Positions 12,258-54,346 of a DNA stretch of 64,000 nucleotides are shown here, one piece after another. Each line of letters starts with the position of its first letter. Position 1 is the stretch's first letter. The position numbers and the translations under genes are program-made. Under the pieces are notes generated by a model. It worked only from the letters and a program-made list of their open reading frames with translations, was not told the origin of the DNA and searched no databases. The stretch lies in the NCBI RefSeq assembly GCF_056746865.1, contig NZ_CM163382.1; one strand, 5' to 3'.

Positions 12258-12260
12258 GGG

Positions 12261-13502: not shown

Positions 13503-13504
13503 TT

Positions 13505-15858: not shown

Positions 15859-15885
15859 TGATTATTAGCTAAGTGCGTGTTATTT

Positions 15886-15985: not shown

Positions 15986-16124
15986 TTTTGCGCTTGTCAT
16001 CAGTCTTAGCGCGCCTTCACGGCACTTTATTAATTCCTTGAACGAATATTTACTGCCATTTCATTCACGTCTATTCTTAATTTGCTGCTTTAAAAACAAG
16101 TGATTGAGCAAAATTGAGGCAAAA

Positions 16125-16490
16125 ATGGACTGGTATCTGAAAGTACTAAAAAATTATGTCGGTTTCCGGGGTCGTGCGCGGCGCAAAGAGTACTGGATGT
16201 TTATTCTGGTCAACATCATCTTTACGTTCGTGCTGGGGCTGCTGGATAAAATGTTAGGCTGGCAACGCGCTGGTGGCGAAGGCATCCTGACAACAATCTA
16301 CGGTATTCTGGTGTTTTTACCGTGGTGGGCGGTTCAGTTCCGCCGCCTGCACGACACCGACCGCTCGGCGTGGTGGGCACTGCTGTTCTTAATCCCGTTT
16401 ATCGGCTGGCTTATTATCATCGTCTTTAACTGCCAGGCGGGTACGCCAGGCGAAAACCGCTTTGGACCTGATCCAAAACTGGAACCTTAA
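16125..16490 (+). CDS. yhaH: DUF805-family inner-membrane protein YhaH
   Basis: ORF track 16104..16490; start at MDWYLKVLKNYVGF (121 aa); paralogous to the next gene, yhaI. Confidence 0.88.
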   Translation: MDWYLKVLKNYVGFRGRARRKEYWMFILVNIIFTFVLGLLDKMLGWQRAGGEGILTTIYGILVFLPWWAVQFRRLHDTDRSAWWALLFLIPFIGWLIIIVFNCQAGTPGENRFGPDPKLEP

Positions 16491-16731
16491 AACAAATCTG
16501 CTCGCCGGATGTCTGACTCATCCGGCTTTTATCATCATGTTGATGAATGAATAATTTACTAATGTTTAGTTAAAATATTTCAATGTCGTTATATAAATTA
16601 CATATAAAAAACAACCATATATTTATCTTAAATATTAAAACCTTTATAACATCCGAAAAAGAAAGATACGAATAGCATTTACACAATACCCGGAATAGAC
16701 TTTCGTCACTTTTAATTAAAGGGATGTTTTT

Positions 16732-17034
16732 ATGCAGTGGTATTTATCCGTATTAAAAAATTATGTTGGTTTCTCTGGTCGCGCACGTCGTAAAGAGTAC
16801 TGGATGTTTACTCTGATTAACGCCATCGTCGGCGCTATTATCAATGTCATTCAATTGATTTTAGGTTTAGAGTTTCCGTTCCTTTCTCTCATTTACCTGG
16901 CAGCAACAATCATTCCGGTCATTGCTCTGTGCGTTCGTCGTCTGCATGATACTGACCGTTCAGGTGCGTGGGCGCTTCTCTATCTGGTACCGATCATTGG
17001 CTGGTTAGTTCTGTTTGTATTTGCCTGTTGGTAA
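16732..17034 (+). CDS. yhaI: DUF805-family inner-membrane protein YhaI, 3' end disrupted by IS1 (reading frame ends ...FVFACW* with the stop inside IS1)
   Basis: ORF runs into the IS1 end at 17030; N-terminus MQWYLSVLKNYVGFSGRARRKEYWMF is paralogous to YhaH; removing IS1 and one TSD copy restores a 118-aa frame. Confidence 0.85.
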   Translation: MQWYLSVLKNYVGFSGRARRKEYWMFTLINAIVGAIINVIQLILGLEFPFLSLIYLAATIIPVIALCVRRLHDTDRSGAWALLYLVPIIGWLVLFVFACW

Positions 17035-17044
17035 TGACTCCAAC

Positions 17045-17548
17045 TTATTGATAGTGTTTTATGTTCAGATAATGCCCGATGACTTTGTCATGCAGCTCCA
17101 CCGATTTTGAGAACGACAGCGACTTCCGTCCCAGCCGTGCCAGGTGCTGCCTCAGATTCAGGTTATGCCGCTCAATTCGCTGCGTATATCGCTTGCTGAT
17201 TACGTGCAGCTTTCCCTTCAGGCGGGATTCATACAGCGGCCAGCCATCCGTCATCCATATCACCACGTCAAAGGGTGACAGCAGGCTCATAAGACGCCCC
17301 AGCGTCGCCATAGTGCGTTCACCGAATACGTGCGCAACAACCGTCTTCCGGAGCCTGTCATACGCGTAAAACAGCCAGCGCTGGCGCGATTTAGCCCCGA
17401 CGTATCCCCACTGTTCGTCCATTTCCGCGCAGACGATGACGTCACTGCCCGGCTGTATGCGCGAGGTTACCGACTGCGGCCTGAGTTTTTTAAATGGCGG
17501 AAAATCGTGTTGAGGCCAACGCCCATAATGCGGGCGGTTGCCCGGCAT
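17045..17548 (-). CDS. insB: IS1 transposase InsB (expressed as an InsAB' fusion by -1 frameshifting)
   Basis: 167-aa ORF recognised as IS1 InsB ([16 protein letters not shown]...). Confidence 0.95.
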
Positions 17549-17742
17549 CCAACGCCATTCATGGCCATATCAATGATTTTCTGGTGCGTACCGGGTTGAG
17601 AAGCGGTGTAAGTGAACTGCAGTTGCCATGTTTTACGGCAGTGAGAGCAGAGATAGCGCTGATGTCCGGCAGTGCTTTTGCCGTTACGCACCACCCCGTC
17701 AGTAGCTGAACAGGAGGGACAGCTGATAGAAACAGAAGCCAC
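17467..17742 (-). CDS. insA: IS1 InsA (zinc-finger/HTH transposition inhibitor)
   Basis: 91-aa ORF with CPSC...CSHC zinc-finger motif; canonical IS1 InsA sequence. Confidence 0.95.
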
Positions 17743-17805
17743 TGGAGCACCTCAAAAACACCATCATACACTAAATCAGTAAGTTGGCAGCATCACCTTG
17801 CCTGT

Positions 17806-17865
17806 TTAGAGGGCAATTCTGGCAGCAATCGTTACGGAAACGATCCGAAATTTGGTTCAAATTAA
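17806..17865 (+). pseudogene. yhaI: Displaced 3' fragment of yhaI (would encode the C-terminal LEGNSGSNRYGNDPKFGSN*), separated from the gene body by IS1
   Basis: In-frame continuation of the yhaI reading frame once IS1 and one TSD copy are removed. Confidence 0.75.
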
Positions 17866-36878: not shown

Positions 36879-37649
36879 TTATTTTTTAAAGGTATCAGCC
36901 AGTTTCTGAGTGGCAGAGCGGAAGACGCCGAGATCGCTGCCGACAGCCACAAACGTCGCACCCCATTCCAGATAACGACGCGCATCGGCTTCGACCGGTG
37001 CGAGGATACCGCTGGGTTTGCCGTGCGCACTGGCACGGTTAAAAATATGCTGAATTGCTTTTTGTACATCCGGGTGCGAGGCATTGCCGAGATGGCCTAA
37101 TGCCGCAGCCAGATCGCTGGGGCCGACGAAGATACCGTCTACGCCTTCGGTAGCGGCAATGGCATCGACGTTATCTACGCCCTGCTGACTTTCTATCTGG
37201 ACCAGAATGGTGATGTTCTTGTTCGACTGAGCGAAATAATCCGCCACGGTGCCAAACATATTGGCGCGGTGAGAAACGGAGACGCCGCGAATGCCTTCCG
37301 GTGGGTAACGGGTTGATGCCACCGCCTGCTCTGCTTCCTCTTTTGTTTCTACAAAAGGAATCAGGAAGTTATAGAAACCGATATCCAGAAGACGCTTAAT
37401 AATTACCGGCTCGTTGGTCGGCACTCGCACTACTGGCGCGCTGGCGCTGCCTTTCAGGGCCATTAACTGCGGAATAAACGTGGAGATATCGTTTGGCGCA
37501 TGTTCGCCATCCAGCACCAGCCAGTCAAACCCAGCCAAACCAAGAACTTCAGTGCTAATCGGGTTAGAGAGTGCTGACCAGCAACCAATTTGTACCTGTT
37601 TCGCAGCCAGTGCGGCTTTGAATTTATTCGGGAAAACATCGTTATTCAT
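36879..37649 (-). CDS. garL: 5-keto-4-deoxy-D-glucarate aldolase GarL
   Basis: 256-aa ORF recognised (HpcH/HpaI aldolase family). Confidence 0.93.
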
Positions 37650-37664
37650 CGCTTATACCTTTGC

Positions 37665-38999
37665 TTATTTCTGCAATTCCATACGTTTAATGTCGCCAAC
37701 TACAAAGAGGTAGCAGACCATCGCCATCAGCGCTGAACATCCCACGAAAACCAGTGCTGCATTGAAGGAGTGCAGTTCACTTACCAGATAGCCAATCACC
37801 AGTGGAGTGACAATGGAGGCAACATTGCCAAAGACGTTAAAGACGCCGCCGCAGAGGCCAACAATCTCTTTCGGCGCGGTGTCAGAAATTACCGGCCAGC
37901 CCAGCGCACCAAATCCTTTGCCAAAGAAAGCCAGCGCCATCAGCATGACCACCAGCGTGGTGTTGTTGGTGTAGTTACATAAGATGATGGTGGAAGCCAG
38001 CAACATTCCCAGCACAATCGGTAGCTTACGTGCCAGGGTCAGGGACAAACCGCGTTTGATCAGATAATCCGAGAAGACACCTCCCAGCACGCCGCCCGCA
38101 AAGCCACACAGTGCCGGAATCGAGGCGACCAGACCCACTTTCAGAATCGACATGCCTTTTTCCTGCACCAGATAAATTGGGAACCAGGTGAGGAAAAACC
38201 AGGTGATGGTGTTGATAAAATATTGTCCGAAAAATACGCCCAGCATCATGCGGTTAGAGAGCAATTGCTTGATGTAATGCAGTTTGGGACCGCTTGCTGC
38301 CGCACTGCCCGGCTTTTTATGGTCCATATCGACCACCGCGCCATTTTCTGAGATAAACTTCAGCTCTTCCGCAGACATACGTGGGTGATCTGTCGGGTTA
38401 TGAATCAACTTGATCCACAGCGCCGTCAGCACAAAACCAATTACCCCCATAACGGTAAAGACGTGCTCCCAGCCCCAGGCGAAAGTCAGCCAGCCAAGCA
38501 GCGGCGAAAAGAGCGCCAGCGAGAAATATTGCGCCGAGTTAAAGATGGCGGAGGCAGTACCACGTTCTTTCGTCGGGAACCAGGCGGCGACAATACGGGC
38601 GTTCGCCGGGAATGATGGCGCTTCCGAGAACCCCAGCATAAAGCGCATAAAGAACATGGAGATCCCTGCCCAGGCCAACGGGAACATATCAACAAAGCCT
38701 TGCAGGAAGGTGAACAGCGACCAGAAAAAGAGGCTGTAGGTGTAAACTTTTTTCGAGCCAAACTTATCAAGCAACCAGCCGCCGGGGATTTGCATCAGCA
38801 GGTAGGCCCAGCCAAAAGCGGAGAAGATGTAACCCATCGAAACCGCACTTAACTGCAACTCTTTTGCCACTTCGGTACCAGCAATAGACAGCGTTGCACG
38901 ATCGGCGTAGTTAACGGCGGTAACAATAAAAATAATCAGTAATATTAAATAGCGGGTATGCACGCCTTTCTTTTTTACGTCAACGGTGTCCAGAATCAT
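37665..38999 (-). CDS. garP: Galactarate/glucarate/glycerate transporter GarP (MFS)
   Basis: 444-aa 12-TM ORF recognised; first gene of garPLRK. Confidence 0.93.
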   Translation of the reverse strand: MILDTVDVKKKGVHTRYLILLIIFIVTAVNYADRATLSIAGTEVAKELQLSAVSMGYIFSAFGWAYLLMQIPGGWLLDKFGSKKVYTYSLFFWSLFTFLQGFVDMFPLAWAGISMFFMRFMLGFSEAPSFPANARIVAAWFPTKERGTASAIFNSAQYFSLALFSPLLGWLTFAWGWEHVFTVMGVIGFVLTALWIKLIHNPTDHPRMSAEELKFISENGAVVDMDHKKPGSAAASGPKLHYIKQLLSNRMMLGVFFGQYFINTITWFFLTWFPIYLVQEKGMSILKVGLVASIPALCGFAGGVLGGVFSDYLIKRGLSLTLARKLPIVLGMLLASTIILCNYTNNTTLVVMLMALAFFGKGFGALGWPVISDTAPKEIVGLCGGVFNVFGNVASIVTPLVIGYLVSELHSFNAALVFVGCSALMAMVCYLFVVGDIKRMELQK

Positions 39000-39373
39000 T
39001 TTATTTACCTCGGGTACTTATGCTGATTTTTATTATTATGGGGAAGGTGTTATTTATGAGTTTTATTTATGCCGTTACGGCAATGAACTCGGGAATTAGT
39101 ATAAGCAGCGCGAGAATAATAATCATTGTGCAAATGCTAATTTAATTAATACTATTTAAATATTATTTTGAGCATATGCACATAAGGTTGCGCGCTAAAG
39201 CACAGATTTGCGCTTTACCTTACCGTGCGGCACTGCAATCCCTGAAATGATTGACATTGATCACATTTCTGCGTTTAAACTCCTGACATTCTTATTTCAC
39301 CCAATGAAGTCATTTATTTTTAAATGAGACCAGGTCCTCATTTTAATAACCCCTGGCTGGAGAATATTGCACA

Positions 39374-40945
39374 ATGGCCAACATCGAAATCAGACAAGAA
39401 ACGCCAACTGCGTTTTATATAAAAGTTCACGACACAGATAATGTGGCAATTATTGTTAATGATAATGGCCTGAAAGCAGGAACGCGTTTTCCGGATGGGC
39501 TGGAATTAATTGAACATATTCCCCAGGGGCATAAAGTCGCATTGCTGGACATTCCGGCTAATGGTGAAATTATTCGTTATGGCGAAGTGATTGGTTACGC
39601 CGTGCGCGCAATCCCACGCGGAAGCTGGATCGACGAATCAATGGTTGTACTACCGGAAGCGCCGCCGTTACACACGCTGCCACTGGCAACCAAAGTCCCG
39701 GCCCCCTTACCGCCACTGGAAGGATACACCTTTGAGGGCTATCGCAATGCCGATGGCAGCGTGGGCACCAAAAACCTGCTCGGCATCACCACCAGCGTCC
39801 ACTGTGTGGCAGGCGTGGTGGACTATGTAGTAAAAATCATTGAACGCGATCTGCTACCGAAATACCCGAACGTCGATGGCGTGGTGGGGCTGAATCATTT
39901 GTACGGTTGTGGCGTGGCGATTAACGCACCGGCGGCAGTTGTGCCTATTCGTACCATTCACAATATTTCGCTGAACCCTAACTTTGGCGGCGAAGTAATG
40001 GTGATTGGTCTGGGTTGTGAAAAGTTGCAGCCTGAACGCCTGCTGACTGGAACGGATGATGTGCAAGCTATTCCAGTAGAAAGCGCCAGCATTGTCAGTT
40101 TGCAGGATGAAAAGCATGTCGGTTTTCAGTCCATGGTCGAGGATATTTTGCAGGTCGCCGAACGCCATTTGCACAAACTGAATCAACGGCAGCGAGAAAC
40201 CTGTCCGGCTTCAGAACTGGTTGTCGGCATGCAGTGCGGCGGTAGCGATGCGTTTTCTGGCGTAACGGCAAACCCGGCGGTTGGGTATGCGTCTGATCTA
40301 CTGGTGCGCTGCGGCGCAACGGTGATGTTTTCAGAAGTCACGGAAGTGCGTGACGCGATCCATCTGCTGACACCACGCGCAGTGAACGAAGAGGTCGGCA
40401 AACGGCTGCTGGAGGAGATGGAGTGGTACGATAACTATCTCAATATGGGAAAAACCGACCGCAGCGCCAACCCTTCGCCGGGCAACAAGAAAGGCGGTCT
40501 GGCAAACGTGGTGGAGAAAGCGCTCGGCTCCATTGCTAAATCGGGTAAAAGTGCAATTGTTGAAGTGCTGTCGCCCGGTCAACGCCCGACTAAACGCGGA
40601 TTAATTTACGCCGCGACGCCAGCCAGTGATTTTGTCTGTGGCACACAACAGGTGGCTTCAGGGATTACCGTGCAAGTGTTTACGACCGGTCGCGGTACGC
40701 CGTACGGCCTGATGGCGGTACCCGTCATTAAAATGGCGACCCGCACCGAGCTGGCGAACCGCTGGTTTGATTTAATGGATATTAATGCGGGCACCATCGC
40801 TACCGGCGAAGAAACTATTGAAGAGGTGGGCTGGAAGTTGTTCCACTTTATTCTCGACGTCGCCAGCGGGAAGAAGAAAACCTTCTCAGATCAATGGGGA
40901 CTGCATAACCAGCTGGCGGTGTTTAACCCGGCACCGGTGACCTGA
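39374..40945 (+). CDS. garD: Galactarate dehydratase GarD
   Basis: 523-aa ORF paralogous to UxaA (SAF N-domain plus dehydratase core); divergent from garP across an AT-rich control region. Confidence 0.95.
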
Positions 40946-40965
40946 TTTCTTTTGGAACGTCCCTC

Positions 40966-40996
40966 GCAAAACATGGCCTTAGTGCCATGTTTTTAT
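40966..40996 (+). terminator. Rho-independent terminator downstream of garD
   Basis: aaaacatggc-cttagt-gccatgtttt hairpin followed by T-rich sequence. Confidence 0.75.
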
Positions 40997-41093
40997 TGTT
41001 TAAAGTCCCCACGTCCATTAATAATGCATTTGCATTACCTTAGTTCAAGCTTATAATTTGAGCAGAAAACAGGCTGTAAAAGGACAGTGAATC

Positions 41094-41429
41094 ATGCCCG
41101 CTAATGCTCGCTCTCACGCTGTACTGACCACTGAATCAAAGGTCACGATACGCGGACAAACAACTATCCCCGCGCCAGTGCGTGAGGCCTTAAAACTGAA
41201 GCCAGGCCAGGACAGCATTCATTACGAAATTCTGCCTGGTGGGCAAGTATTTATGTGCCGACTGGGAGATGAACAGGAGGATCATACTATGAATGCATTT
41301 TTGCGTTTTCTGGATGCAGATATCCAGAACACCCCGCAAAAAACTCGTCCATTCAACATTCAACAAGGAAAGAAACTTGTCGCTGGCATGGACGTCAACA
41401 TTGATGATGAGATTGGCGACGACGAATAA
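41094..41429 (+). CDS. prlF: Type II antitoxin PrlF (SohA), AbrB/SpoVT-like fold
   Basis: 111-aa ORF recognised; stop overlaps the yhaV start by 1 nt. Confidence 0.92.
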   Translation: MPANARSHAVLTTESKVTIRGQTTIPAPVREALKLKPGQDSIHYEILPGGQVFMCRLGDEQEDHTMNAFLRFLDADIQNTPQKTRPFNIQQGKKLVAGMDVNIDDEIGDDE

Positions 41430-41893
41430 TGGATTTTCCACAAAGGGTTAATGGTTGGGCGCTATATGCTCATCCCTGTTTTCAGGAAACCTACGACGCT
41501 TTAGTTGCCGAAGTCGAGACATTAAAGGGAAAAGATCCTGAAAATTATCAGAGAAAAGCCGCCACAAAGTTATTGGCGGTAGTCCATAAAGTGATTGAGG
41601 AGCATATCACGGTCAATCCATCATCACCGGCATTCCGTCATGGCAAGTCGTTAGGCTCTGGGAAAAATAAAGACTGGTCACGGGTAAAATTTGGTGCTGG
41701 TCGTTATCGTCTCTTCTTTCGTTATAGTGAAAAAGAGAAAGTCATCATTCTGGGATGGATGAACGATGAAAACACTCTGCGCACCTACGGTAAAAAAACA
41801 GATGCTTATACCGTATTCAGCAAAATGTTAAAAAGAGGACATCCTCCTGCCGACTGGGAAACCCTCACCCGAGAGGCAGAAGAAACCCATTGA
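41429..41893 (+). CDS. yhaV: Type II toxin YhaV (ribosome-dependent mRNA endonuclease)
   Basis: 154-aa ORF recognised; translationally coupled to prlF. Confidence 0.92.
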   Translation: MDFPQRVNGWALYAHPCFQETYDALVAEVETLKGKDPENYQRKAATKLLAVVHKVIEEHITVNPSSPAFRHGKSLGSGKNKDWSRVKFGAGRYRLFFRYSEKEKVIILGWMNDENTLRTYGKKTDAYTVFSKMLKRGHPPADWETLTREAEETH

Positions 41894-41947
41894 TGGTGTT
41901 CACAATGCCCGCCGAACGCATTCGTGTTGACCAGCGGGCACCCTTTC

Positions 41948-42757
41948 TCACTCCCCGACCAGAATCACTTCAACCCCAGCCTTTCGCAGGCCTTCCAGAC
42001 TATCCGCAGGAATGCCTTCATCAACAATGATCATGTCGATACGTTGAGTATCAATGATCTTATGTAAACTGGAACGATTGAACTTACTGGAATCGGTGAC
42101 CACGATGATCCGTTCCGCAACTTCGCACATCCGGCGGTTTAAACGGGCTTCATCTTCATTATGCGTACTGACGCCGCGCTCCAGATCGATCGCATCTACG
42201 CCAAGAAACAGCATATCGAAGTGGTAATTTTGCAGCGATTGTTCAGCCTGATCGCCGTAAAAAGATTGCGACTGACGGCGCAAATGCCCGCCGGTCATCA
42301 GCAGCTCAACGCCTTCCGCTTCCAGCAACGCATTAGCCACGTTCATACCGTTGGTCATCGCAATTACGTCAGTGTGCTTGCGCATCAGACGAGCAATCTC
42401 AAAAGTGGTGGTCCCGGAATCGAGGATCACCCGATGACCTGGCTGAATCAACTCAACGGCAGCTTTCGCAACGCTGCGTTTCATCGCGGTGTTCAGCGCG
42501 CTTTTATCTTCCACTGATGGCTCGACTGACGGCGTGGTGCTATCGCAGATCAACGCGCCGCCATAGGCACGCACAGCGATCCCCTGCTTTTCCAGAAACG
42601 CCAGATCGTTGCGGATCGTCACAGTAGATACGCCATACAATGCCGACAGATCGTTAACCTGCACACTCCCTTGCTGTCGCAGACGCTGAATGATCTGTTC
42701 TCGTCGCTCGCTGGTGCCTGTCATTCGCTTCTCACCTGAAGCGTCGGTATTACTCAT
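41948..42757 (-). CDS. agaR: DeoR-family repressor AgaR of the aga/kba cluster
   Basis: 269-aa ORF with N-terminal HTH and DeoR C-terminal sugar-phosphate-binding domain. Confidence 0.93.
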
Positions 42758-43005
42758 AGTAAGTCCTTTCGTAAAACTTTCGTTTCATTTCGTTTTGCCT
42801 ATTAACGCCTTTCTATTAAGCAAATGCAAGCCCACCTTACCCATTGGCGCAAGCTACTCTCGTTTCAGTGGCTTTCATTATGTTTCTTTTGTGAATCAGA
42901 TCAGAAAACTATTATCTTTCGTTTTATTTTTATCTCACCATGGCGCAGTATCAACTGAAACAAAACGAAAGATTAATATCGCAGTAATCTGAACTGGAGA
43001 GGAAA
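42758..43005. promoter_or_regulatory. agaR / kbaZ divergent control region with repeated CTTTCGTTT-type AgaR operator motifs
   Basis: Several copies of tttcgttt / aaacgaaag (e.g. ctttcgtttcatttcgtttt near 42776, tctttcgttttatt near 42917, caaaacgaaag near 42961). Confidence 0.6.
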
Positions 43006-44286
43006 GTGAAACATCTGACAGAAATGGTGAGACAGCACAAAGCGGGCAAAACAAATGGGATTTATGCCGTTTGTTCCGCACATCCGCTGGTGCTGGAAGC
43101 TGCAATCCGCTACGCCAGTGCAAACCAAACGCCGTTACTGATTGAAGCGACCTCCAATCAGGTGGACCAGTTCGGCGGTTATACCGGAATGACGCCCGCC
43201 GATTTTCGCGGCTTTGTTTGTCAGCTCGCCGACTCGTTGAATTTCCCACAGGATGCGTTGATTCTGGGTGGCGACCATCTGGGTCCAAATCGCTGGCAAA
43301 ACCTGCCTGCCGCTCAGGCAATGGCCAATGCCGATGATTTGATTAAAAGCTACGTGGCGGCAGGATTCAAAAAAATTCACCTTGATTGCAGCATGTCCTG
43401 TCAGGACGATCCGGTTCCCTTAACTGATGACATCGTGGCTGAACGCGCCGCACGTCTGGCGAAAGTGGCGGAAGAAACCTGTCGTGAACACTTTGGCGAA
43501 GCCGATCTGGTGTATGTCATTGGTACCGAAGTACCGGTACCTGGCGGCGCGCATGAAACCTTAAGCGAGCTGGCGGTCACCACGCCGGATGCCGCCCGCG
43601 CCACGCTGGAAGCCCATCGTCACGCCTTTGAAAAGCAAGGTCTGAGTGCCATCTGGCCACGCATCATTGCTCTGGTGGTTCAACCCGGCGTCGAATTCGA
43701 TCACACCAACGTTATTGATTATCAGCCCGTCAAAGCGACCGCCTTAAGCCAGATGGTCGAAAACTACGAAACGCTGATTTTCGAAGCGCACTCTACCGAT
43801 TACCAAACGCCGCAATCGTTGCGCCAGCTAGTGATTGACCACTTTGCCATTCTGAAAGTTGGCCCGGCGCTGACCTTCGCCCTGCGTGAAGCTCTGTTCT
43901 CTCTGGCAGCGATTGAAGAAGAACTGGTGCCAGCAAAAGCCTGTTCTGGTCTGCGTCAGGTGCTGGAAAACGTGATGCTCGACCGCCCGGAATACTGGCA
44001 AAGCCACTACCACGGTGACGGCAACGCGCGTCGTCTGGCGCGTGGTTATAGCTACTCGGATCGCGTGCGCTATTACTGGCCGGACAGCCAGATTGATGAC
44101 GCTTTCGCTCATCTGGTTCGTAATCTGGCGGATTCACCAATTCCGCTACCGCTCATCAGCCAGTATTTGCCGCTGCAATACGTGAAAGTTCGCTCCGGCG
44201 AGCTGCAGCCAACACCACGGGAACTCATTATCAACCATATTCAGGACATCCTGGCGCAGTACCACACAGCCTGTGAAGGCCAATAA
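43006..44286 (+). CDS. kbaZ: Tagatose-bisphosphate aldolase non-catalytic subunit KbaZ
   Basis: 426-aa ORF with GTG start and GGAGAGG RBS; recognised. Confidence 0.92.
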
Positions 44287-44308
44287 GCAAAACAAAGAGG
44301 AACACGCT

Positions 44309-44782
44309 ATGCCAAATATTGTTTTAAGCCGGATTGATGAGCGTTTGATTCACGGTCAGGTCGGCGTTCAGTGGGTCGGATTTGCGGGGGCAAATCTGGT
44401 GCTGGTAGCCAACGATGAGGTTGCCGAAGATCCGGTACAACAAAACCTGATGGAAATGGTACTGGCAGAAGGGATCGCCGTACGTTTCTGGACGCTGCAA
44501 AAAGTTATCGACAACATCCACCGCGCCGCCGATCGACAGAAAATCCTGCTGGTTTGTAAAACACCTGCCGATTTCCTGACGCTGGTGAAAGGTGGCGTTC
44601 CGGTGAATCGCATTAACGTTGGCAATATGCACTACGCCAATGGCAAGCAACAAATCGCCAAAACGGTTTCTGTGGATGCGGGCGATATCGCAGCATTTAA
44701 CGACCTGAAAGCCGCTGGGGTGGAATGCTTCGTTCAGGGCGTCCCGACAGAGCCTGCTGTGGACCTCTTTAAATTACTTTGA
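44309..44782 (+). CDS. agaV: PTS N-acetylgalactosamine-specific IIB component AgaV
   Basis: ORF track 44273..44782; start at MPNIVLSRIDERLIHGQ (157 aa); mannose-family IIB with active-site His. Confidence 0.92.
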   Translation: MPNIVLSRIDERLIHGQVGVQWVGFAGANLVLVANDEVAEDPVQQNLMEMVLAEGIAVRFWTLQKVIDNIHRAADRQKILLVCKTPADFLTLVKGGVPVNRINVGNMHYANGKQQIAKTVSVDAGDIAAFNDLKAAGVECFVQGVPTEPAVDLFKLL

Positions 44783-44792
44783 GGGATTCATC

Positions 44793-45572
44793 ATGGAAAT
44801 CAGTCTGTTGCAGGCATTCGCGTTGGGCATTATCGCCTTTATCGCTGGCCTGGATATGTTTAACGGCTTAACCCATATGCACCGCCCGGTGGTCCTCGGC
44901 CCGTTAGTCGGGCTGGTACTTGGCGATCTGCATACCGGTATTTTAACCGGCGGTACGCTGGAACTGGTGTGGATGGGGCTGGCCCCGCTGGCAGGCGCAC
45001 AACCGCCTAACGTGATTATCGGTACTATCGTCGGCACGGCGTTTGCCATTACTACTGGCGTGAAACCCGATGTCGCGGTCGGTGTCGCCGTACCTTTCGC
45101 TGTCGCAGTACAGATGGGGATTACCTTCCTGTTCTCGGTGATGTCTGGCGTAATGTCCCGCTGCGACCGGATGGCGGAGAACGCCGATACTCGCGGCATT
45201 GAACGCGTGAACTATCTGGCACTGCTGGCACTCGGCACTTTCTATTTTCTCTGCGCTTTCCTGCCTATCTACTTCGGCGCGGAACATGCAAAAACCATCA
45301 TTGATGTCCTGCCGCAACGATTAATCGACGGCCTCGGCGTCGCGGGCGGCATCATGCCAGCAATCGGTTTTGCCGTGCTGCTGAAAATCATGATGAAAAA
45401 CGTCTACATCCCCTACTTCATCCTGGGCTTTGTTGCCGCAGCCTGGCTCAAGTTACCGGTGCTGGCTATTGCTGCCGCCGCGCTGGCGATGGCGCTGATC
45501 GACCTGCTGCGTAAATCTCCTGAACCGACTCAACCTGCGGCACAGAAAGAGGAATTTGAAGATGGCATCTAA
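44793..45572 (+). CDS. agaW: PTS N-acetylgalactosamine-specific IIC component AgaW (full length)
   Basis: 259-aa multi-TM ORF, paralogous to AgaC. Confidence 0.9.
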   Translation: MEISLLQAFALGIIAFIAGLDMFNGLTHMHRPVVLGPLVGLVLGDLHTGILTGGTLELVWMGLAPLAGAQPPNVIIGTIVGTAFAITTGVKPDVAVGVAVPFAVAVQMGITFLFSVMSGVMSRCDRMAENADTRGIERVNYLALLALGTFYFLCAFLPIYFGAEHAKTIIDVLPQRLIDGLGVAGGIMPAIGFAVLLKIMMKNVYIPYFILGFVAAAWLKLPVLAIAAAALAMALIDLLRKSPEPTQPAAQKEEFEDGI

Positions 45573-46440
45573 TCAAACCACCCTGCCGAACGTCAGTGAA
45601 AACGAAGAAACACTGCTGACTGGCGTCAATGAAAACGTGTATGAAGATCAGAGCATTGGCGCAGAGCTGACAAAAAAAGATATCAACCGCGTCGCCTGGC
45701 GTTCCATGCTGTTACAAGCGTCTTTTAACTACGAACGTATGCAGGCTTCCGGCTGGTTGTACGGTCTGCTGCCTGCTCTGAAAAAGATCCACACTAATAA
45801 ACGCGACCTGGCGCGCGCCATGAAGGGGCATATGGGTTTCTTCAATACCCATCCGTTTCTGGTGACGTTTGTTATCGGCATTATCCTTGCGATGGAGCGT
45901 TCTAAGCAGGACGTTAACAGTATTCAGAGCACCAAAATTGCCGTCGGTGCGCCGCTCGGCGGGATTGGCGATGCAATGTTCTGGCTGACGCTACTGCCGA
46001 TTTGTGGCGGGATTGGTGCAAGCCTCGCGCTACAAGGCTCTATTCTTGGCGCTGTCGTCTTTATTGTGCTGTTCAACGTGGTACACCTGGGGCTGCGTTT
46101 TGGTCTGGCGCATTATGCTTATCGCATGGGCGTGGCGGCGATTCCACTCATTAAAGCGAATACCAAAAAAGTCGGCCATGCTGCGTCAATCGTTGGGATG
46201 ACGGTAATCGGCGCGCTGGTAGCAACCTATGTTCGTTTAAGCACCACGCTGGAAATCACCGCTGGCGATGCAGTGGTTAAGTTACAGGCTGATGTTATCG
46301 ACAAACTGATGCCTGCCTTCTTACCGCTGGTCTACACCCTGACCATGTTCTGGCTGGTACGCCGCGGCTGGAGTCCGCTGCGCCTGATTGCAGTTACCGT
46401 GGTTCTCGGTATCGTCGGTAAATTCTGTCATTTCCTTTAA
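45556..46440 (+). CDS. agaE: PTS N-acetylgalactosamine-specific IID component AgaE
   Basis: 294-aa ORF, paralogous to AgaD (shared ...SFNYERMQA... motif); start may be 2 codons downstream. Confidence 0.88.
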   Translation: MKMASNQTTLPNVSENEETLLTGVNENVYEDQSIGAELTKKDINRVAWRSMLLQASFNYERMQASGWLYGLLPALKKIHTNKRDLARAMKGHMGFFNTHPFLVTFVIGIILAMERSKQDVNSIQSTKIAVGAPLGGIGDAMFWLTLLPICGGIGASLALQGSILGAVVFIVLFNVVHLGLRFGLAHYAYRMGVAAIPLIKANTKKVGHAASIVGMTVIGALVATYVRLSTTLEITAGDAVVKLQADVIDKLMPAFLPLVYTLTMFWLVRRGWSPLRLIAVTVVLGIVGKFCHFL

Positions 46441-46457
46441 ATACAATGAGGTATTAG

Positions 46458-46892
46458 ATGTTAAGTATTATTTTGACAGGGCATGGCGGATTTGCCAGCG
46501 GCATGGAAAAAGCAATGAAGCAAATCCTCGGCGAGCAATCGCAGTTTATCGCCATCGATTTTCCGGAAACCTCAAGCACCGCGCTGCTTACATCGCAGCT
46601 TGAAGAGGCCTTCGCCCAACTGGATTGTGAAGACGGCATTGTTTTTCTGACAGATTTGCTGGGCGGCACGCCGTTTCGCGTAGCTTCAACGCTGGCGATG
46701 CAAAAACCGGGCTGTGAAGTGATCACCGGCACCAATTTGCAACTGCTACTGGAGATGGTGCTGGAGCGCGAAGGGTTAAGCGGTGAAGAGTTCCGTGTGC
46801 AGGCGCTGGAGTGTGGACACCGTGGGCTGACCAGTTTGGTGGACGAGTTAGGCCGCTGCCATGAAGAATGTCCGGTCGAGGAAGGAATATGA
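46458..46892 (+). CDS. agaF: PTS IIA component AgaF (mannose family)
   Basis: 144-aa ORF with GGAGA-like RBS; IIA fold pattern (ILTGHGGFASG). Confidence 0.88.
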   Translation: MLSIILTGHGGFASGMEKAMKQILGEQSQFIAIDFPETSSTALLTSQLEEAFAQLDCEDGIVFLTDLLGGTPFRVASTLAMQKPGCEVITGTNLQLLLEMVLEREGLSGEEFRVQALECGHRGLTSLVDELGRCHEECPVEEGI

Positions 46893-48022
46893 CACACGTT
46901 CTGCGCGCCAGAAGGCTGCTGACTGAAGAGGGATGGCTCGATGACCATCAGTTGCGTATTGCTGACGGTGTAATCGCAGCAATCGAACCGATTCCAGTGG
47001 GCGTGACTGAACGCGATGCGGAACTGCTCTGCCCCGCTTACATCGACACCCATGTACACGGTGGTGCGGGCGTTGATGTAATGGATGACGCGCCGGATGT
47101 GCTCGACAAGCTGGCAATGCACAAGGCACGCGAAGGTGTCGGCAGTTGGTTACCGACCACCGTAACCGCGCCGCTTAATACCATTCATGCGGCGCTGAAA
47201 CGTATTGCTCAACGTTGCCAACGCGGCGGACCTGGTGCGCAAGTGCTGGGGAGTTATCTCGAAGGACCATACTTCACGCCGCAGAATAAAGGCGCGCATC
47301 CGCCGGAGCTGTTTCGCGAGCTGGAAATTGCCGAGCTGGATCAGTTGATTGCCGTTTCTCAGCACACCTTGCGCGTGGTAGCGCTGGCACCGGAAAAAGA
47401 AGGGGCATTGCAGGCCATCCGCCATCTTAAACAGCAAAACGTACGGGTGATGCTGGGGCATAGCGCGGCGACCTGGCAACAAACCCGTGCCGCGTTTGAC
47501 GCTGGTGCCGACGGCCTGGTGCATTGCTATAACGGGATGACAGGTTTACATCACCGCGAACCGGGAATGGTTGGCGCGGGATTAACGGACAAGCGCGCCT
47601 GGCTGGAACTGATAGCCGATGGTCATCATGTGCATCCGGCGGCGATGTCGCTGTGTTGTTGCTGTGCAAAAGAGAGAATCGTGCTCATCACCGACGCGAT
47701 GCAGGCAGCAGGGATGCCGGATGGTCGCTATACGTTATGTGGTGAAGAAGTGCAGATGCACGGTGGCGTTGTCCGTACCGCGTCCGGTGGGCTGGCGGGC
47801 AGTACGCTGTCTGTCGATGCGGCAGTGCGCAACATGGTTGAGTTGGCGGGTGTAACGCCTGCCGAAGCCATCCATATGGCGTCGCTGCATCCGGCGCAAA
47901 TGCTGGGTGTTGATGATGTTCTGGGATCGCTTAAACCGGGCAAACGCGCCAGCATCGTTGCGCTGGATAGCGGGCTGCATGTGCAACAAATCTGGATTCA
48001 GGGTCAATTAGCTTCGTTTTGA
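46889..48022 (+). CDS. agaA: N-acetylgalactosamine-6-phosphate deacetylase AgaA (full length, NagA homologue)
   Basis: ORF track 46868..48022; start at MTHVLRAR (377 aa) overlapping the agaF stop; metal-binding HxH motif (DTHVHGG). Confidence 0.9.
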   Translation: MTHVLRARRLLTEEGWLDDHQLRIADGVIAAIEPIPVGVTERDAELLCPAYIDTHVHGGAGVDVMDDAPDVLDKLAMHKAREGVGSWLPTTVTAPLNTIHAALKRIAQRCQRGGPGAQVLGSYLEGPYFTPQNKGAHPPELFRELEIAELDQLIAVSQHTLRVVALAPEKEGALQAIRHLKQQNVRVMLGHSAATWQQTRAAFDAGADGLVHCYNGMTGLHHREPGMVGAGLTDKRAWLELIADGHHVHPAAMSLCCCCAKERIVLITDAMQAAGMPDGRYTLCGEEVQMHGGVVRTASGGLAGSTLSVDAAVRNMVELAGVTPAEAIHMASLHPAQMLGVDDVLGSLKPGKRASIVALDSGLHVQQIWIQGQLASF

Positions 48023-48094
48023 TGGTTTGCTCCTTTATTGGGCCTTCACTTCCCCCGTAAGGCCTTTCTTTTTCTTTCGTTGTGCTCTGTGCAG

Positions 48095-48160
48095 GGTATC
48101 GGATGCGACGCTGACGCGTCTTCTTTGACCTACGGTACGCCGCATCCGGCAATCGGTGAA
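48095..48160. repeat. REP/BIME element downstream of agaA
   Basis: atcggatgcgacgctgacgcgtcttctttgacctac plus inverted partner cgccgcatccggc. Confidence 0.65.
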
Positions 48161-48371
48161 CATAGCAACGTCATCACGCCATCCTTTAATCTTCCCTTGT
48201 CTTTTCTTTCAACGATCACAAATTTCGTTTTATTTCTTTTTTCTCCATTGAACTTTCAGTTTCTTTTCTATAGATTTTAATCAACGAAAGACATCACCAA
48301 GTGAAATGAAACGAAAGGTAAGCGAAAGCGACAACGCCCGACGTCAAGTTCATCAGACTAAGGATTGAGTT
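48161..48371 (+). promoter_or_regulatory. agaS upstream control region with AgaR-operator-like CGAAAG/CTTTCG repeats
   Basis: ttcgttttatttc, caacgaaagacatcacc and tgaaatgaaacgaaaggtaagcgaaagcg motifs upstream of the agaS ATG. Confidence 0.55.
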
Positions 48372-49526
48372 ATGCCAGAAAATTACACCCCTGCTGCTGC
48401 CGCAACCGGTACATGGACTGAAGAAGAGATCCGCCATCAGCCTCGCGCATGGATCCGTTCACTCACCAACATCGACGCGCTACGTTCCGCGCTCAATAAC
48501 TTCCTTGAACCGTTACTGCGCAAAGAGAATCTGCGGGTAATCCTGACCGGAGCCGGAACCTCGGCATTTATCGGTGACATCATCGCGCCGTGGCTCGCCA
48601 GCCATACAGGTAAAAACTTCAGCGCCGTACCGACCACCGATCTGGTCACCAATCCGATGGACTACCTGAATCCAGCTCATCCACTGCTGTTGATCTCCTT
48701 CGGTCGATCCGGCAACAGCCCGGAAAGCGTCGCCGCCGTGGAACTGGCAAATCAATTTGTACCCGAGTGCTATCACCTGCCGATCACCTGCAACGAAGCG
48801 GGCGCTCTTTACCAAAACGCGATCAACAGCGACAACGCGTTTGCCCTGCTGATGCCCGCAGAAACGCACGACCGCGGCTTTGCGATGACCAGCAGCATTA
48901 CCACCATGATGGTCAGCTGCCTCGCGGTTTTCGCACCTGAGACGATCAACAGCCAGAGCTTCCGCGACGTGGCGGATCGTTGCCAGGCGATCCTGACCTC
49001 ACTGGGCGATTTCAGCGAAGGTGTGTTTGGTTACGCACCGTGGAAACGGATCGTTTATCTCGGCAGCGGTGGCTTACAGGGCGCAGCACGCGAGTCGGCG
49101 CTGAAAGTACTGGAACTGACGGCGGGTAAACTGGCGGCCTTTTATGATTCCCCGACCGGATTCCGTCATGGCCCGAAATCGCTGGTCGATAACGAAACGC
49201 TGGTGGTGGTATTTGTCTCCAGCCACCCTTACACCCGTCAGTATGATCTTGATCTACTGGCTGAACTTCGCCGCGATAACCAGGCAATGCGCGTAATCGC
49301 CATCGCCGCGGAAAGCACAGACATCGTTGCTGCCGGTCCACATATTATCCTGCCGCCGTCCCGTCACTTTATCGACGTTGAGCAGGCATTTTGCTTCCTG
49401 ATGTACGCCCAGACGTTTGCACTTATGCAGTCGCTGCACATGGGCAATACGCCGGATACCCCATCAGCCAGCGGCACCGTTAACCGCGTGGTGCAAGGCG
49501 TAATCATTCATCCGTGGCAGGCATAA
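48372..49526 (+). CDS. agaS: Galactosamine-6-phosphate deaminase/isomerase AgaS (tandem SIS domains)
   Basis: 384-aa ORF recognised; AGGA RBS. Confidence 0.93.
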   Translation: MPENYTPAAAATGTWTEEEIRHQPRAWIRSLTNIDALRSALNNFLEPLLRKENLRVILTGAGTSAFIGDIIAPWLASHTGKNFSAVPTTDLVTNPMDYLNPAHPLLLISFGRSGNSPESVAAVELANQFVPECYHLPITCNEAGALYQNAINSDNAFALLMPAETHDRGFAMTSSITTMMVSCLAVFAPETINSQSFRDVADRCQAILTSLGDFSEGVFGYAPWKRIVYLGSGGLQGAARESALKVLELTAGKLAAFYDSPTGFRHGPKSLVDNETLVVVFVSSHPYTRQYDLDLLAELRRDNQAMRVIAIAAESTDIVAAGPHIILPPSRHFIDVEQAFCFLMYAQTFALMQSLHMGNTPDTPSASGTVNRVVQGVIIHPWQA

Positions 49527-50399
<873 letters not shown>

Positions 50400-50565
50400 T
50401 CATTAGTTTTTTATGATTTATCCCAATGTACTTCCCGATTAATATCGGGGAGTGCCTTAATGGTAAAGGAGATAACTAAACCTTAATAAATACATCAGTA
50501 CAATATCGCAACAATAATATATTTAAAAAAATTATATTATTCAACTTTATGGTGAGGATTACACA

Positions 50566-51042
50566 ATGAGCAGTCCAAATATTCTCTTAACCCGTATTGA
50601 TAACCGTCTGGTTCACGGTCAGGTTGGCGTGACCTGGACATCTACCATCGGTGCAAATCTGCTGGTAGTCGTGGATGATGTTGTCGCTAACGATGATATT
50701 CAACAGAAATTAATGGGTATTACCGCGGAAACCTACGGCTTTGGCATTCGTTTCTTTACTATCGAAAAAACCATTAATGTCATCGGCAAAGCTGCACCGC
50801 ATCAAAAGATCTTCCTGATTTGCCGTACGCCACAAACGGTACGTAAATTGGTAGAAGGTGGCATTGACCTGAAAGATGTCAACGTCGGCAATATGCATTT
50901 CTCGGAAGGGAAAAAGCAAATCAGCAGTAAAGTTTATGTCGATGACCAGGATCTCACGGACTTACGTTTTATTAAACAACGTGGCGTGAATGTTTTCATT
51001 CAGGACGTCCCTGGCGATCAAAAAGAACAAATCCCTGACTAA
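50566..51042 (+). CDS. agaB: PTS galactosamine-specific IIB component AgaB
   Basis: 158-aa ORF paralogous to AgaV (LTRIDNRLVHGQVGVTW). Confidence 0.92.
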   Translation: MSSPNILLTRIDNRLVHGQVGVTWTSTIGANLLVVVDDVVANDDIQQKLMGITAETYGFGIRFFTIEKTINVIGKAAPHQKIFLICRTPQTVRKLVEGGIDLKDVNVGNMHFSEGKKQISSKVYVDDQDLTDLRFIKQRGVNVFIQDVPGDQKEQIPD

Positions 51043-51080
51043 ATCTAAAATCGCCTTAATATTGGTTTGAGGTAATAAAA

Positions 51081-51884
51081 ATGCATGAAATAACCCTACT
51101 CCAAGGATTATCCCTGGCGGCGTTAGTTTTCTTTCTGGGGATTGATTTTTGGCTGGAAGCCTTATTTTTATTCCGCCCGATAATCGTTTGTACCCTAACT
51201 GGCGCTATTCTCGGTGATATTCAGACTGGCTTAATTACCGGTGGTCTGACAGAGTTGGCTTTCGCCGGATTAACCCCTGCAGGTGGTGTTCAGCCGCCCA
51301 ACCCGATTATGGCGGGTCTGATGACCACCGTCATTGCATGGTCTACGGGCGTTGATGCCAAAACGGCAATTGGTCTTGGCCTGCCGTTTAGTTTGTTAAT
51401 GCAGTACGTCATTCTGTTCTTCTATTCCGCTTTCTCATTATTTATGACCAAAGCCGATAAATGCGCGAAAGAAGCGGATACGGCAGCGTTTTCCCGACTT
51501 AACTGGACAACGATGCTCATCGTCGCTTCAGCGTATGCGGTGATTGCTTTCCTCTGTACTTACCTGGCACAAGGGGCGATGCAGGCGCTGGTGAAAGCGA
51601 TGCCCGCCTGGCTGACCCACGGCTTTGAAGTGGCTGGCGGTATTCTGCCTGCCGTTGGTTTTGGCTTGCTGCTGCGCGTAATGTTCAAAGCGCAATATAT
51701 CCCTTACCTGATCGCCGGTTTCCTGTTTGTTTGCTACATCCAGGTCAGCAACCTGTTGCCGGTTGCCGTACTGGGCGCAGGCTTTGCGGTGTATGAGTTT
51801 TTCAATGCGAAATCCCGGCAGCAAGCGCAACCGCAGCCCGTTGCCAGTAAAAATGAAGAAGAGGACTACAGCAATGGGATCTGA
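51081..51884 (+). CDS. agaC: PTS galactosamine-specific IIC component AgaC
   Basis: 267-aa multi-TM ORF paralogous to AgaW. Confidence 0.92.
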   Translation: MHEITLLQGLSLAALVFFLGIDFWLEALFLFRPIIVCTLTGAILGDIQTGLITGGLTELAFAGLTPAGGVQPPNPIMAGLMTTVIAWSTGVDAKTAIGLGLPFSLLMQYVILFFYSAFSLFMTKADKCAKEADTAAFSRLNWTTMLIVASAYAVIAFLCTYLAQGAMQALVKAMPAWLTHGFEVAGGILPAVGFGLLLRVMFKAQYIPYLIAGFLFVCYIQVSNLLPVAVLGAGFAVYEFFNAKSRQQAQPQPVASKNEEEDYSNGI

Positions 51885-52665
51885 AATCAGTAAAAAAGAT
51901 ATCACCCGTCTGGGCTTTCGTTCGTCACTGCTACAAGCAAGCTTTAACTACGAAAGGATGCAGGCGGGCGGTTTTACCTGGGCGATGTTGCCGATCCTGA
52001 AAAAGATTTATAAGGACGACAAACCGGGCCTAAGCGCGGCGATGAAAGATAACCTCGAATTTATTAATACCCACCCGAATCTGGTCGGATTCCTGATGGG
52101 GTTATTAATTTCGATGGAAGAAAAAGGAGAAAACCGCGACACCATTAAAGGCCTCAAAGTGGCACTGTTTGGCCCAATCGCCGGGATTGGCGATGCGATT
52201 TTCTGGTTTACCTTATTGCCGATTATGGCGGGAATTTGCTCATCATTTGCCAGCCAGGGAAACTTGCTGGGGCCGATTCTATTTTTCGCCGTTTACCTGC
52301 TTATCTTCTTCCTGCGCGTCGGCTGGACCCACGTCGGTTATTCAGTCGGCGTGAAGGCGATCGATAAAGTGCGAGAGAACTCGCAGATGATTGCTCGTTC
52401 GGCAACCATCCTCGGGATCACGGTAATCGGCGGGCTGATCGCTTCGTATGTGCATATTAACGTGGTGACATCGTTTGCCATCGACAGTACCCACAGCGTC
52501 GCGCTGCAGCAGGATTTCTTCGATAAAGTCTTCCCGAATATTTTACCGATGGCCTACACCCTGCTGATGTATTACTTCCTGCGGGTGAAAAAAGCGCATC
52601 CGGTGCTGTTAATCGGCGTGACGTTTGTTCTTTCTATTGTTTGTTCTGCATTCGGCATTTTGTAA
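51874..52665 (+). CDS. agaD: PTS galactosamine-specific IID component AgaD
   Basis: ORF track 51727..52665; start at MGSEISKKD (263 aa) overlapping the agaC stop. Confidence 0.92.
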   Translation: MGSEISKKDITRLGFRSSLLQASFNYERMQAGGFTWAMLPILKKIYKDDKPGLSAAMKDNLEFINTHPNLVGFLMGLLISMEEKGENRDTIKGLKVALFGPIAGIGDAIFWFTLLPIMAGICSSFASQGNLLGPILFFAVYLLIFFLRVGWTHVGYSVGVKAIDKVRENSQMIARSATILGITVIGGLIASYVHINVVTSFAIDSTHSVALQQDFFDKVFPNILPMAYTLLMYYFLRVKKAHPVLLIGVTFVLSIVCSAFGIL

Positions 52666-53433
52666 ATGGAACGAGGCACCGCGTCTGGCGGTGCCTCTTT
52701 ACTTAAGGAATTTCATCCTGTGCAAACCCTTCAACAAGTTGAAAACTATACGGCGTTAAGTGAACGTGCCAGCGAATATTTATTGGCCGTGATCCGTAGC
52801 AAACCGGATGCCGTGATTTGCCTGGCGACCGGAGCCACGCCATTACTGACGTATCATTATCTGGTAGAAAAAATCCACCAGCAGCAGGTTGATGTCAGCC
52901 AGCTCACCTTCGTGAAGCTCGACGAATGGGTGGATCTGCCATTAACGATGCCTGGCACCTGCGAAACTTTCCTGCAACAGCATATCGTGCAGCCGCTGGG
53001 GCTACGTGAAGACCAACTCATCAGCTTTCGCTCCGAAGAGATAAATGAGACAGAGTGCGAACGGGTAACGAACCTGATTGCGCGCAAAGGCGGTCTGGAT
53101 TTATGCGTTCTCGGATTGGGGAAAAACGGTCATCTTGGGCTGAACGAACCGGGAGAAAACCTGCAACCGGCCTGCCATATCAGTCAACTTGATGCCAGAA
53201 CACAGCAACATGAGATGTTAAAAACCGCGGGCCGTCCTGTGACTCGTGGGATCACCTTAGGCCTGAAGGATATTCTCAATGCCCGCGAAGTTTTGTTACT
53301 GGTGACTGGCGAAGGAAAGCAGGATGCGACAGAACGTTTTCTCACGGCTAAAGTCTCTACCGCTATCCCGGCTTCATTTTTATGGCTGCATAACCATTTC
53401 ACATGCGTGATTGATGAAATGTGTCGTCGTTAA
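52666..53433 (+). CDS. agaI: Putative galactosamine-6-phosphate deaminase/isomerase AgaI (NagB-like)
   Basis: ORF recognised; start uncertain (ATG at 52666 without RBS, or GTG at 52720 with AAGGAA RBS); a hairpin aggcaccgc...gcggtgcct lies at 52673-52697. Confidence 0.85.
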   Translation: MERGTASGGASLLKEFHPVQTLQQVENYTALSERASEYLLAVIRSKPDAVICLATGATPLLTYHYLVEKIHQQQVDVSQLTFVKLDEWVDLPLTMPGTCETFLQQHIVQPLGLREDQLISFRSEEINETECERVTNLIARKGGLDLCVLGLGKNGHLGLNEPGENLQPACHISQLDARTQQHEMLKTAGRPVTRGITLGLKDILNAREVLLLVTGEGKQDATERFLTAKVSTAIPASFLWLHNHFTCVIDEMCRR

Positions 53434-53482
53434 CTCGCCAGGTAAAGGCGTTGTAGCGCTATTCCTGCTGCGACGCCTGTAA

Positions 53483-54346
53483 TCACTCTCCCTGCTGCTC
53501 CAGCGCATACTTATACAGCGCATTTTTCTTCACGCCGTGAATTTCTGCGGCCAGCGCCGCCGCTTTTTTCAGCGGCAGTTCTGCCTGTAGCAGCGCCAGC
53601 GTGCGCAGGGCATCAGCAGGCAGGTCATCTTCCTGCGCTTTATGGCCTTCGACAATCAGTACCATTTCGCCTTTGCGACGGTTTTCATCTTCTTTGACCC
53701 ACGCCAGCAGCTCGCCAACGGGCGCGCCGTGAATGGTTTCCCAGGTTTTGGTTAGCTCACGCGCCAGAACCACGTAGCGGGATTCGCCTAATACCGCAAC
53801 GATATCTTCCAGGCTATCTAACAGACGGTGGGTAGATTCATAAAAAATCAGCGTGCGCGGCTCCGCTTCAATGGCTTTTAGCGCATCACGGCGGCCTTTT
53901 GATTTGGCAGGTAAAAAGCCTTCATAACAAAAACGATCGGATGGTAAACCCGCGGCGCTTAACGCAGTGATAGCAGCACACGGCCCGGGTAGCGGCACCA
54001 CGCGAATCCCCGCTTCACGGCAGGTACGCACCAGATGGTAGCCAGGATCGTTAATTAGCGGCGTTCCGGCATCGGAAACCAGCGCAATGTTTTGCCCCTC
54101 TTGCAGCTTCGCCAGCAGCGTTTCGGCTTTTTGTTGTTCGTTATGGTCGTGCAGCGCAAACAACCGAGCATTAATCCCAAAATGTTGCAGCAATAAACCG
54201 GTGTGACGCGTATCCTCGGCGGCAATCAGATCAACGGCCTGTAATACCTCCAACGCACGCTGGGTGATATCCGCCAGATTGCCGATTGGCGTCGGTACAA
54301 TGTAAAGCTGGCCCTGAGAATTATCCGCCGATTGGTGTTGTTTCAT
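53483..54346 (-). CDS. rsmI: 16S rRNA (cytidine1402-2'-O)-methyltransferase RsmI (YraL)
   Basis: 287-aa ORF recognised (tetrapyrrole-methylase fold, [14 protein letters not shown]). Confidence 0.92.

Follow-up and report, generated by a model that had tools for sequence, protein, structure and literature searches.

A window of 64,000 nucleotides of Escherichia coli DNA very probably carries, at positions 41948-53433, the complete chromosomal aga/gam regulon of a phylogroup D strain resembling sequence type 69 (ST69), with the genes for the use of N-acetylgalactosamine (GalNAc) and galactosamine (GalN). Within this region, we read the agaW-agaE-agaF-agaA stretch at 44793-48022 as the ancestral, undeleted form of a segment that is missing from E. 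coli K-12, and the strain should be able to use both sugars (Aga+ Gam+). The gene order agaR-kbaZ-agaVWEFA-agaS-kbaY-agaBCDI is complete and all frames are open.

GalNAc and GalN are mucin-derived sugars, which an intact aga/gam cluster allows E. coli to use in the gut. The cluster, the K-12 deletion, the phenotype and the revised gene roles are already known from work published between 2000 and 2013 (Brinkkötter 2000; Hu 2013), so that no new question is opened here. The difference between K-12 and wild strains is by now a textbook case of strain polymorphism, with its description dating from 2000 and refinements from 2013, and explains why K-12 metabolic models and phenotypes fail to transfer to wild isolates. 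For the window, its value lies in lineage and phenotype annotation only: not K-12, and probably Aga+ Gam+.

The central stretch contains four uninterrupted open reading frames (ORFs) on the plus strand in the ORF table, at 44793-45572 (259 aa), 45556-46440 (294 aa, from a TTG), 46458-46892 (144 aa) and 46868-48022 (384 aa); in the last of these, the ATG at 46889 yields an AgaA of 377 aa. A previous sequence-only reading had placed full-length AgaW (259 aa), AgaE (294 aa), AgaF (144 aa) and AgaA (377 aa) between agaV and agaS, all of which stands apart from the length of AgaE, which is 292 aa. In the RefSeq annotation of the identical sequence from strain 118UI, agaE starts at the ATG at 45562, and 294 residues are reached only from the upstream TTG. 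Furthermore, the NCBIfam AgaE model, which has 292 positions, matches residues 1-292 end to end, and the spacing from an AGAGGA Shine-Dalgarno sequence is 9 nt to the ATG but only 3 nt to the TTG. The RefSeq gene lengths in 118UI are 780 nt for agaW, 879 nt (292 aa) for agaE, 435 nt for agaF and 1134 nt (377 aa) for agaA, there labelled nagA. Overlaps of 11 nt between agaW and agaE and of 4 nt (ATGA) between agaF and agaA are in keeping with translational coupling within an operon. Translation of all 13 cluster genes and comparison with five reference strains revealed no frameshift or internal stop, so that none had been overlooked by eye in the four central ORFs. Antisense ORFs within the segment (for example, 46454-47122 on the minus strand, 222 aa) lie opposite well-supported coding genes and were taken as chance occurrences.

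We then consider how common this arrangement is. We compared window positions 44000-48400 by a megablast search with 5426 complete E. coli genomes. With a genome scored as intact when 80% or more of this 4.4 kb query matched at one place, the segment is intact in 4930 of them (about 91%). Intact agaWEFA is the species norm, and the window carries the majority allele. A 200-bp probe spanning the K-12 deletion junction, which splits into two halves elsewhere, was matched end to end in 371 genomes; five of these matches were sampled, all with 100% identity and in genomes of 4.56-4.63 Mb, and three belong to recognisable K-12 laboratory strains (ER1709, AML003_ev01 and JM83). The search also returned a 100% match in 118UI, a urinary (uropathogenic) isolate of ST69 and phylogroup D (PMC8900328). 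The window comes from a near-clone of this strain, with no mismatches over 17798-64000 and a single base different over 1-17029. The window does come from a non-K-12 lineage, as previously claimed; however, with the intact state in so many genomes and the K-12 junction in only 371, 'non-K-12' is a weak and little informative statement.

Predicted phenotype and lineage-specific substitutions

The mechanism that we propose is the one described in the literature for E. coli C and O157:H7, which we carry over to the window by near-identity. As long as neither GalNAc nor GalN is available, AgaR would keep the agaS promoter and the divergent promoters of agaR and kbaZ repressed. GalNAc would be converted to GalNAc-6-P on entry through a mannose-family phosphotransferase system (PTS) composed of AgaV (IIB), AgaW (IIC) and AgaE (IID), and GalN to GalN-6-P through AgaB, AgaC and AgaD, while AgaF, as a single IIA, would phosphorylate both transporters. 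AgaA (or NagA) would then deacetylate GalNAc-6-P, AgaS would deaminate and isomerise GalN-6-P to tagatose-6-P and, once this is phosphorylated, KbaY/KbaZ would cleave the resulting tagatose-1,6-bisphosphate. In the published genetics, AgaF is the only IIA for both AgaVWE and AgaBCD, agaA is dispensable as NagA substitutes for it, agaI is dispensable as well, and AgaS is the real GalN-6-P deaminase/isomerase (PMC3668189). The sequence-only reading had described two parallel PTS, AgaVWEF and AgaBCD: two transporter sets are indeed present, but they are not independent, as AgaF is common to both.

Sequence motifs fit these roles. The subunit types of the mannose/fructose/sorbose PTS family are all present, with AgaF as IIA, AgaV as IIB, AgaW as IIC, and AgaE and AgaD as IID. 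His9 of AgaF aligns with the phospho-histidine His10 of IIA-Man (1PDO, 1VRC), and AgaV and AgaB share an RL(I/V)HGQV motif near the N-terminus together with a full-length match to TIGR00854. AgaA aligns over its full length with the solved NagA structures 7NUT, 2VHL and 9UP6 and keeps their HxH, Glu of LEGP, GHS/T, H-x-(F/Y)N-x-M and TDA motifs; it differs from the E. coli C protein at 337 and 343, where NagA homologues carry Gln and Asp/Glu. Its specificity for GalNAc-6-P is based on PMC3668189. KbaY shows a single difference in 286 residues, A111D, from the crystallised E. coli AgaY (PDB 1GVF).

Inactivating lesions have been defined in O157:H7, namely AgaF G91S, an amber at agaC codon 8 and an amber at agaI codon 72; the first, a single missense change, abolishes Aga use in spinach-outbreak isolates (PMC3668189). 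We sought AgaF G91S, agaC Q8amber and agaI Q72amber in the window, along with the 2.3-kb K-12 deletion and the agaF frameshift of E. coli 536, and found none of them. The sites concerned are wild-type, with Gly at AgaF position 91 and Gln at both agaC codon 8 and agaI codon 72.

The control regions also appear to be in place. A scan of the entire window with an AgaR operator consensus gave five matches (0-3 mismatches) versus 0.13 expected, and all five fall within two intergenic regions. Three are located in the agaR-kbaZ divergent control region (42774-42974), at 42774-42797, 42869-42892 and 42951-42974, and two in the agaS promoter region (48219-48320), at 48219-48242 on the plus strand and 48297-48320 on the minus strand. 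The promoters of agaR/kbaZ and agaS are said to bind AgaR (PMC3668189).

Expression and growth of the window strain as Aga+ Gam+ is a genotype-based prediction, and a well-supported one, as the cluster is nearly identical to those of E. coli C, whose Aga+ Gam+ phenotype has been characterised by experiment (PMC3668189), and of enteroaggregative E. coli (EAEC) 042, which is GalNAc+ in phenotype microarrays, with better use than MG1655 (PMC2808357). Several points nevertheless weigh against it, beginning with the fact that the phenotype is predicted from genotype. Relative to E. coli C, O157:H7, BL21, 042 and, where its genes are intact, 536, five substitutions occur only in the lineage of the window: KbaZ I137V and E169V, AgaF I52F, AgaS A181V and KbaY A111D. 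Such missense changes may not be dismissed on principle, since one change in AgaF is enough to abolish Aga use in O157:H7. The operator consensus used in our scan is one that we take to be that of Ray and Larson (2004). Finally, a simple and crude sigma-70 and terminator scan of 42600-53600 returned fewer promoter-like matches than in shuffled sequences, and none on the plus strand upstream of kbaZ or agaS.

Two alternatives to the Aga+ Gam+ reading concern the proteins themselves. The strain might be Aga+ but Gam-, like O157:H7, owing to an unrecognised defect in agaBCD uptake or expression. This phenotype is known in nature to result from a single point mutation (PMC3668189), and AgaC has the substitution V18F with respect to the E. 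coli C protein; however, V18F is also found in strain 536, codon 8 of agaC is the wild-type one, AgaB and AgaD are identical to the 042 and 536 proteins, and agaB, agaC and agaD are all full length with products that clear their equivalog cut-offs. We consider a Gam- strain improbable on these grounds. Alternatively, the cluster may be intact but GalNAc-defective through the missense changes of its lineage (for example, AgaF I52F, KbaY A111D, KbaZ E169V or AgaS A181V), in the manner of AgaF G91S. The absence of all five substitutions from the strains compared and the published precedent of one AgaF missense change giving Aga- (PMC3668189) speak for such a defect, which we hold to be quite improbable all the same. 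I52F, the sole difference between this AgaF and that of E. coli C, replaces one hydrophobic residue with another at a position that is Leu in IIA-Man, and an exact 61-mer with F52 is found in 136 complete genomes, which marks F52 as an allele fixed in the lineage rather than a new lesion. At position 111 of KbaY, active aldolases homologous to it have D or E, and all proteins score far above curated family cut-offs. No feature of the window's aga proteins argues for a loss of function, and the Aga+ Gam+ phenotype remains the predicted one.

A broader consequence may be imagined for the ST69 lineage, to which we give little chance, placing it among the highly improbable: its allele set (AgaF I52F, in about 136 of 5426 genomes, with KbaY A111D, KbaZ E169V and AgaS A181V) could measurably alter amino-sugar use in a pandemic uropathogenic clone. 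If this were true, GalNAc/GalN uptake would be lost or its kinetics altered, as with AgaF G91S in O157:H7, and the allele set would represent a lineage-specific metabolic marker and no neutral polymorphism.

The K-12 deletion

The loss of 2.3 kb from the K-12 aga cluster was reportedly described by Brinkkötter et al. in 2000. Comparison of the window with the K-12 chromosome by blastn gives two collinear blocks, 37000-45168 corresponding to positions 1-8169 of the K-12 locus and 47464-53390 to positions 8160-14087. Column-by-column comparison sets the segment missing from K-12 at 45169-47473, that is, 2305 bp. The sequence-only reading had described a deletion of about 2.3 kb with agaE and agaF lost and agaW and agaA truncated, and exactly these genes are affected; an uninterrupted agaWEFA in K-12 is excluded by the alignments and by the junction probe. 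An imperfect 10-bp direct repeat (9/10 identical) marks the deletion ends, with CGCTGCGACC at 45159-45168 in agaW and CGCGGCGACC at 47464-47473 in agaA. K-12 holds a single copy of the repeat, with the left-hand T, which places the crossover within the shared GCGACC. Short direct repeats at the endpoints fit illegitimate recombination or slippage.

Comparison with E. coli C, one of the references that had been suggested for alignment, points the same way. E. coli C also has the direct repeat, and K-12 shows the identical 2305-bp gap relative to it, with the same repeats, while their flanks differ by 5 nt over 10.6 kb. The K-12 cluster thus corresponds to one like that of E. coli C from which the 2305-bp piece is missing. 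What K-12 retains of agaW is codons 1-125; agaE and agaF are wholly lost; and the first 195 codons of agaA are gone, leaving the last 182. As 2305 is not divisible by three, the agaW and agaA remnants are out of frame, and the RefSeq annotation treats both as partial pseudogenes. That the agaWEFA segment is instead an insertion gained by the window's lineage, with no deletion in K-12, draws on nothing beyond the presence/absence polymorphism itself and deserves almost no credence, and we rejected it on the population frequency of the segment, which occurs in 91% of complete genomes and across phylogroups, and on the 5' agaW and 3' agaA pseudogene remnants of K-12, to which the near-identical flanks of intact E. 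coli C may be added.

In the deletion scenario, K-12 would have lost the 2305 bp by recombination or slippage between the 10-bp imperfect repeats in agaW and agaA, and, with IIC(Aga), IID(Aga) and the IIA of both transporters destroyed, would have become Aga- Gam-. Loss of the shared IIA AgaF accounts for K-12 being Gam- despite intact agaBCD and, agaA being dispensable, the decisive losses are those of agaW, agaE and agaF. That K-12 is Aga- Gam- due to the deletion, also part of the sequence-only reading as regards Aga, is stated in two papers that both cite Brinkkötter 2000 (PMC3668189, PMC2808357).

Other strains present lesions of their own. In E. coli 536 (locus L009, 4811-6143), agaF is frameshifted and AgaE has 298 aa. 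O157:H7 F7508 (locus L007, 14083-16423) combines the agaC codon-8 amber with an internal stop (amber) in agaI. In strain 52F4 (H40), matches are confined to kbaZ and agaS, which points to a larger deletion. These are natural lesions that are independent and belong to other lineages.

Genes of the cluster and neighbouring observations

The products of all 13 genes clear their NCBIfam cut-offs, and 11 (AgaV, W, E, F, B, C and D, KbaZ, KbaY, AgaI and AgaR) clear those of protein-specific equivalog models; the models for the remaining two are the NagA equivalog (TIGR00221) for AgaA and the AgaS subfamily (TIGR02815) for AgaS. The regulator gene agaR lies on the minus strand at 41948-42757 (NF040755 AgaR, 465.9 bits, cut-off 260); it is annotated as agaR in 118UI, and its protein is identical to that of EAEC 042. 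All other genes are on the plus strand. The first, kbaZ (agaZ, 43006-44286, GTG start), encodes the 426-aa non-catalytic subunit of tagatose-1,6-bisphosphate aldolase (NF012002 KbaZ, 898 bits, cut-off 707). It is followed by the components of the Aga transporter: agaV for IIB(Aga) (44309-44782, 157 aa; NF008508, 319.9 bits, cut-off 180), whose protein accession is the same in BL21 and 042; agaW for IIC(Aga) (44793-45572, 259 aa; NF040757 AgaW, 410.8 bits, cut-off 300), with a protein accession common to O157:H7, BL21, 536 and 042; agaE for IID(Aga) (45562-46440, 292 aa; NF040760 AgaE, 617.6 bits, cut-off 500), identical in protein to that of E. coli C; and agaF for the IIA of both the Aga and Gam transporters (46458-46892, 144 aa; NF040761 AgaF, 218 bits, cut-off 130).

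Downstream of these, agaA (46889-48022, 377 aa) encodes a GalNAc-6-P deacetylase of the NagA family (TIGR00221, 289.4 bits, cut-off 225.65), and agaS (48372-49526, 384 aa) a SIS-domain GalN-6-P deaminase/isomerase (TIGR02815, 633 bits, cut-off 529.2), its function being taken from the genetics in PMC3668189. The catalytic subunit of the class II tagatose-1,6-bisphosphate aldolase, of 286 aa, is encoded by kbaY (agaY, 49539-50399; NF009375, 666.4 bits, cut-off 542). The Gam transporter genes come next, with agaB for IIB(Gam) at 50566-51042 (158 aa; NF007288, 281.6 bits, cut-off 180), agaC for IIC(Gam) at 51081-51884 (267 aa; NF007289, 405.4 bits, cut-off 300) and agaD for IID(Gam) at 51874-52665 (263 aa; NF007359, 456.5 bits, cut-off 400). 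The cluster ends with agaI at 52666-53433, which encodes a NagB-like protein of 255 aa (NF007291, 472.2 bits, cut-off 271). An Rfam scan of the 64 kb window found no RNA element in the aga cluster, the only match being rnpB at 34308-34684.

The 3' boundary of the cluster is variable among strains. Between agaI and rsmI, the strains K-12, E. coli C, BL21 and O157:H7 carry the yraHIJK chaperone-usher fimbrial operon, which the window lacks (53390-53483). AgaI has an alternative C-terminus here, ending in ...LHNHFTCVIDEMCRR and bringing the protein to 255 aa, where the K-12/E. coli C form has 251 aa. The agaI-rsmI junction without yraHIJK was found in 1821 of the 5426 complete genomes, including 536 and 042, both of which also have the 255-aa AgaI.

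Outside the cluster, an IS1 element of 768 bp occupies 17030-17797, with typical inverted ends and a 9-bp target duplication, ttgcctgtt (17021-17029 and 17798-17806). It interrupts the second DUF805-domain gene (yhaI-like, start near 16732). The otherwise identical 118UI has no IS1 at this site, so that the insertion is a recent one. Two further genes are intact in the window and damaged elsewhere: garD (39374-40945) is frameshifted, according to the annotation, in EAEC 042 (locus L011, 20866-22436), and the yhaV toxin gene (41429-41893) has an internal stop in BL21 (locus L008, 4430-4894).

Comparison with characterised strains and the mannose PTS

A close known reference is the cluster of E. 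coli C (Brinkkötter 2000; Hu, Patel & Mukherjee 2013, PMC3668189), which has the same 13 genes in the same order and orientation and the same AgaR operator matches in the intergenic regions. Protein lengths are equal with the exception of AgaI, and each protein differs by between 0 (AgaE) and 7 (KbaZ) residues, the AgaI tail aside. Differences amount to about 27 amino-acid substitutions across the cluster, this tail not counted; in addition, AgaI has 251 aa in E. coli C and is followed there by yraHIJK.

EAEC 042 is, like the window, of phylogroup D. Its cluster is 98.7% identical to that of the window over 11,486 nt with no gaps; AgaR, AgaV, AgaW, AgaB and AgaD are identical, and the 255-aa AgaI and direct agaI-rsmI junction are the same. 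The two strains differ at 22 residues in total, among them AgaF I52F and KbaY A111D, both confined to the lineage of the window. The K-12 allele is collinear with the window through agaR, kbaZ, agaV, agaS, kbaY and agaBCDI at 97.5-98% identity; however, it lacks window positions 45169-47473 and hence has no agaE or agaF and only truncated agaW and agaA.

Among PTS of other specificity, E. coli ManXYZ offers the natural comparison. Its IIA, IIB, IIC and IID functions are all found in the aga cluster, and AgaF residues 2-127 align with IIA-Man, including the conserved phospho-histidine. Of the mannose PTS subfamily models, TIGR00854 scores above its cut-off, whereas TIGR00822 and TIGR00828 score below theirs for AgaW and AgaE. 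IIA and IIB are fused in ManX and are separate polypeptides in the aga cluster, where a single IIA serves two IIBCD sets and the substrates are GalNAc and GalN.

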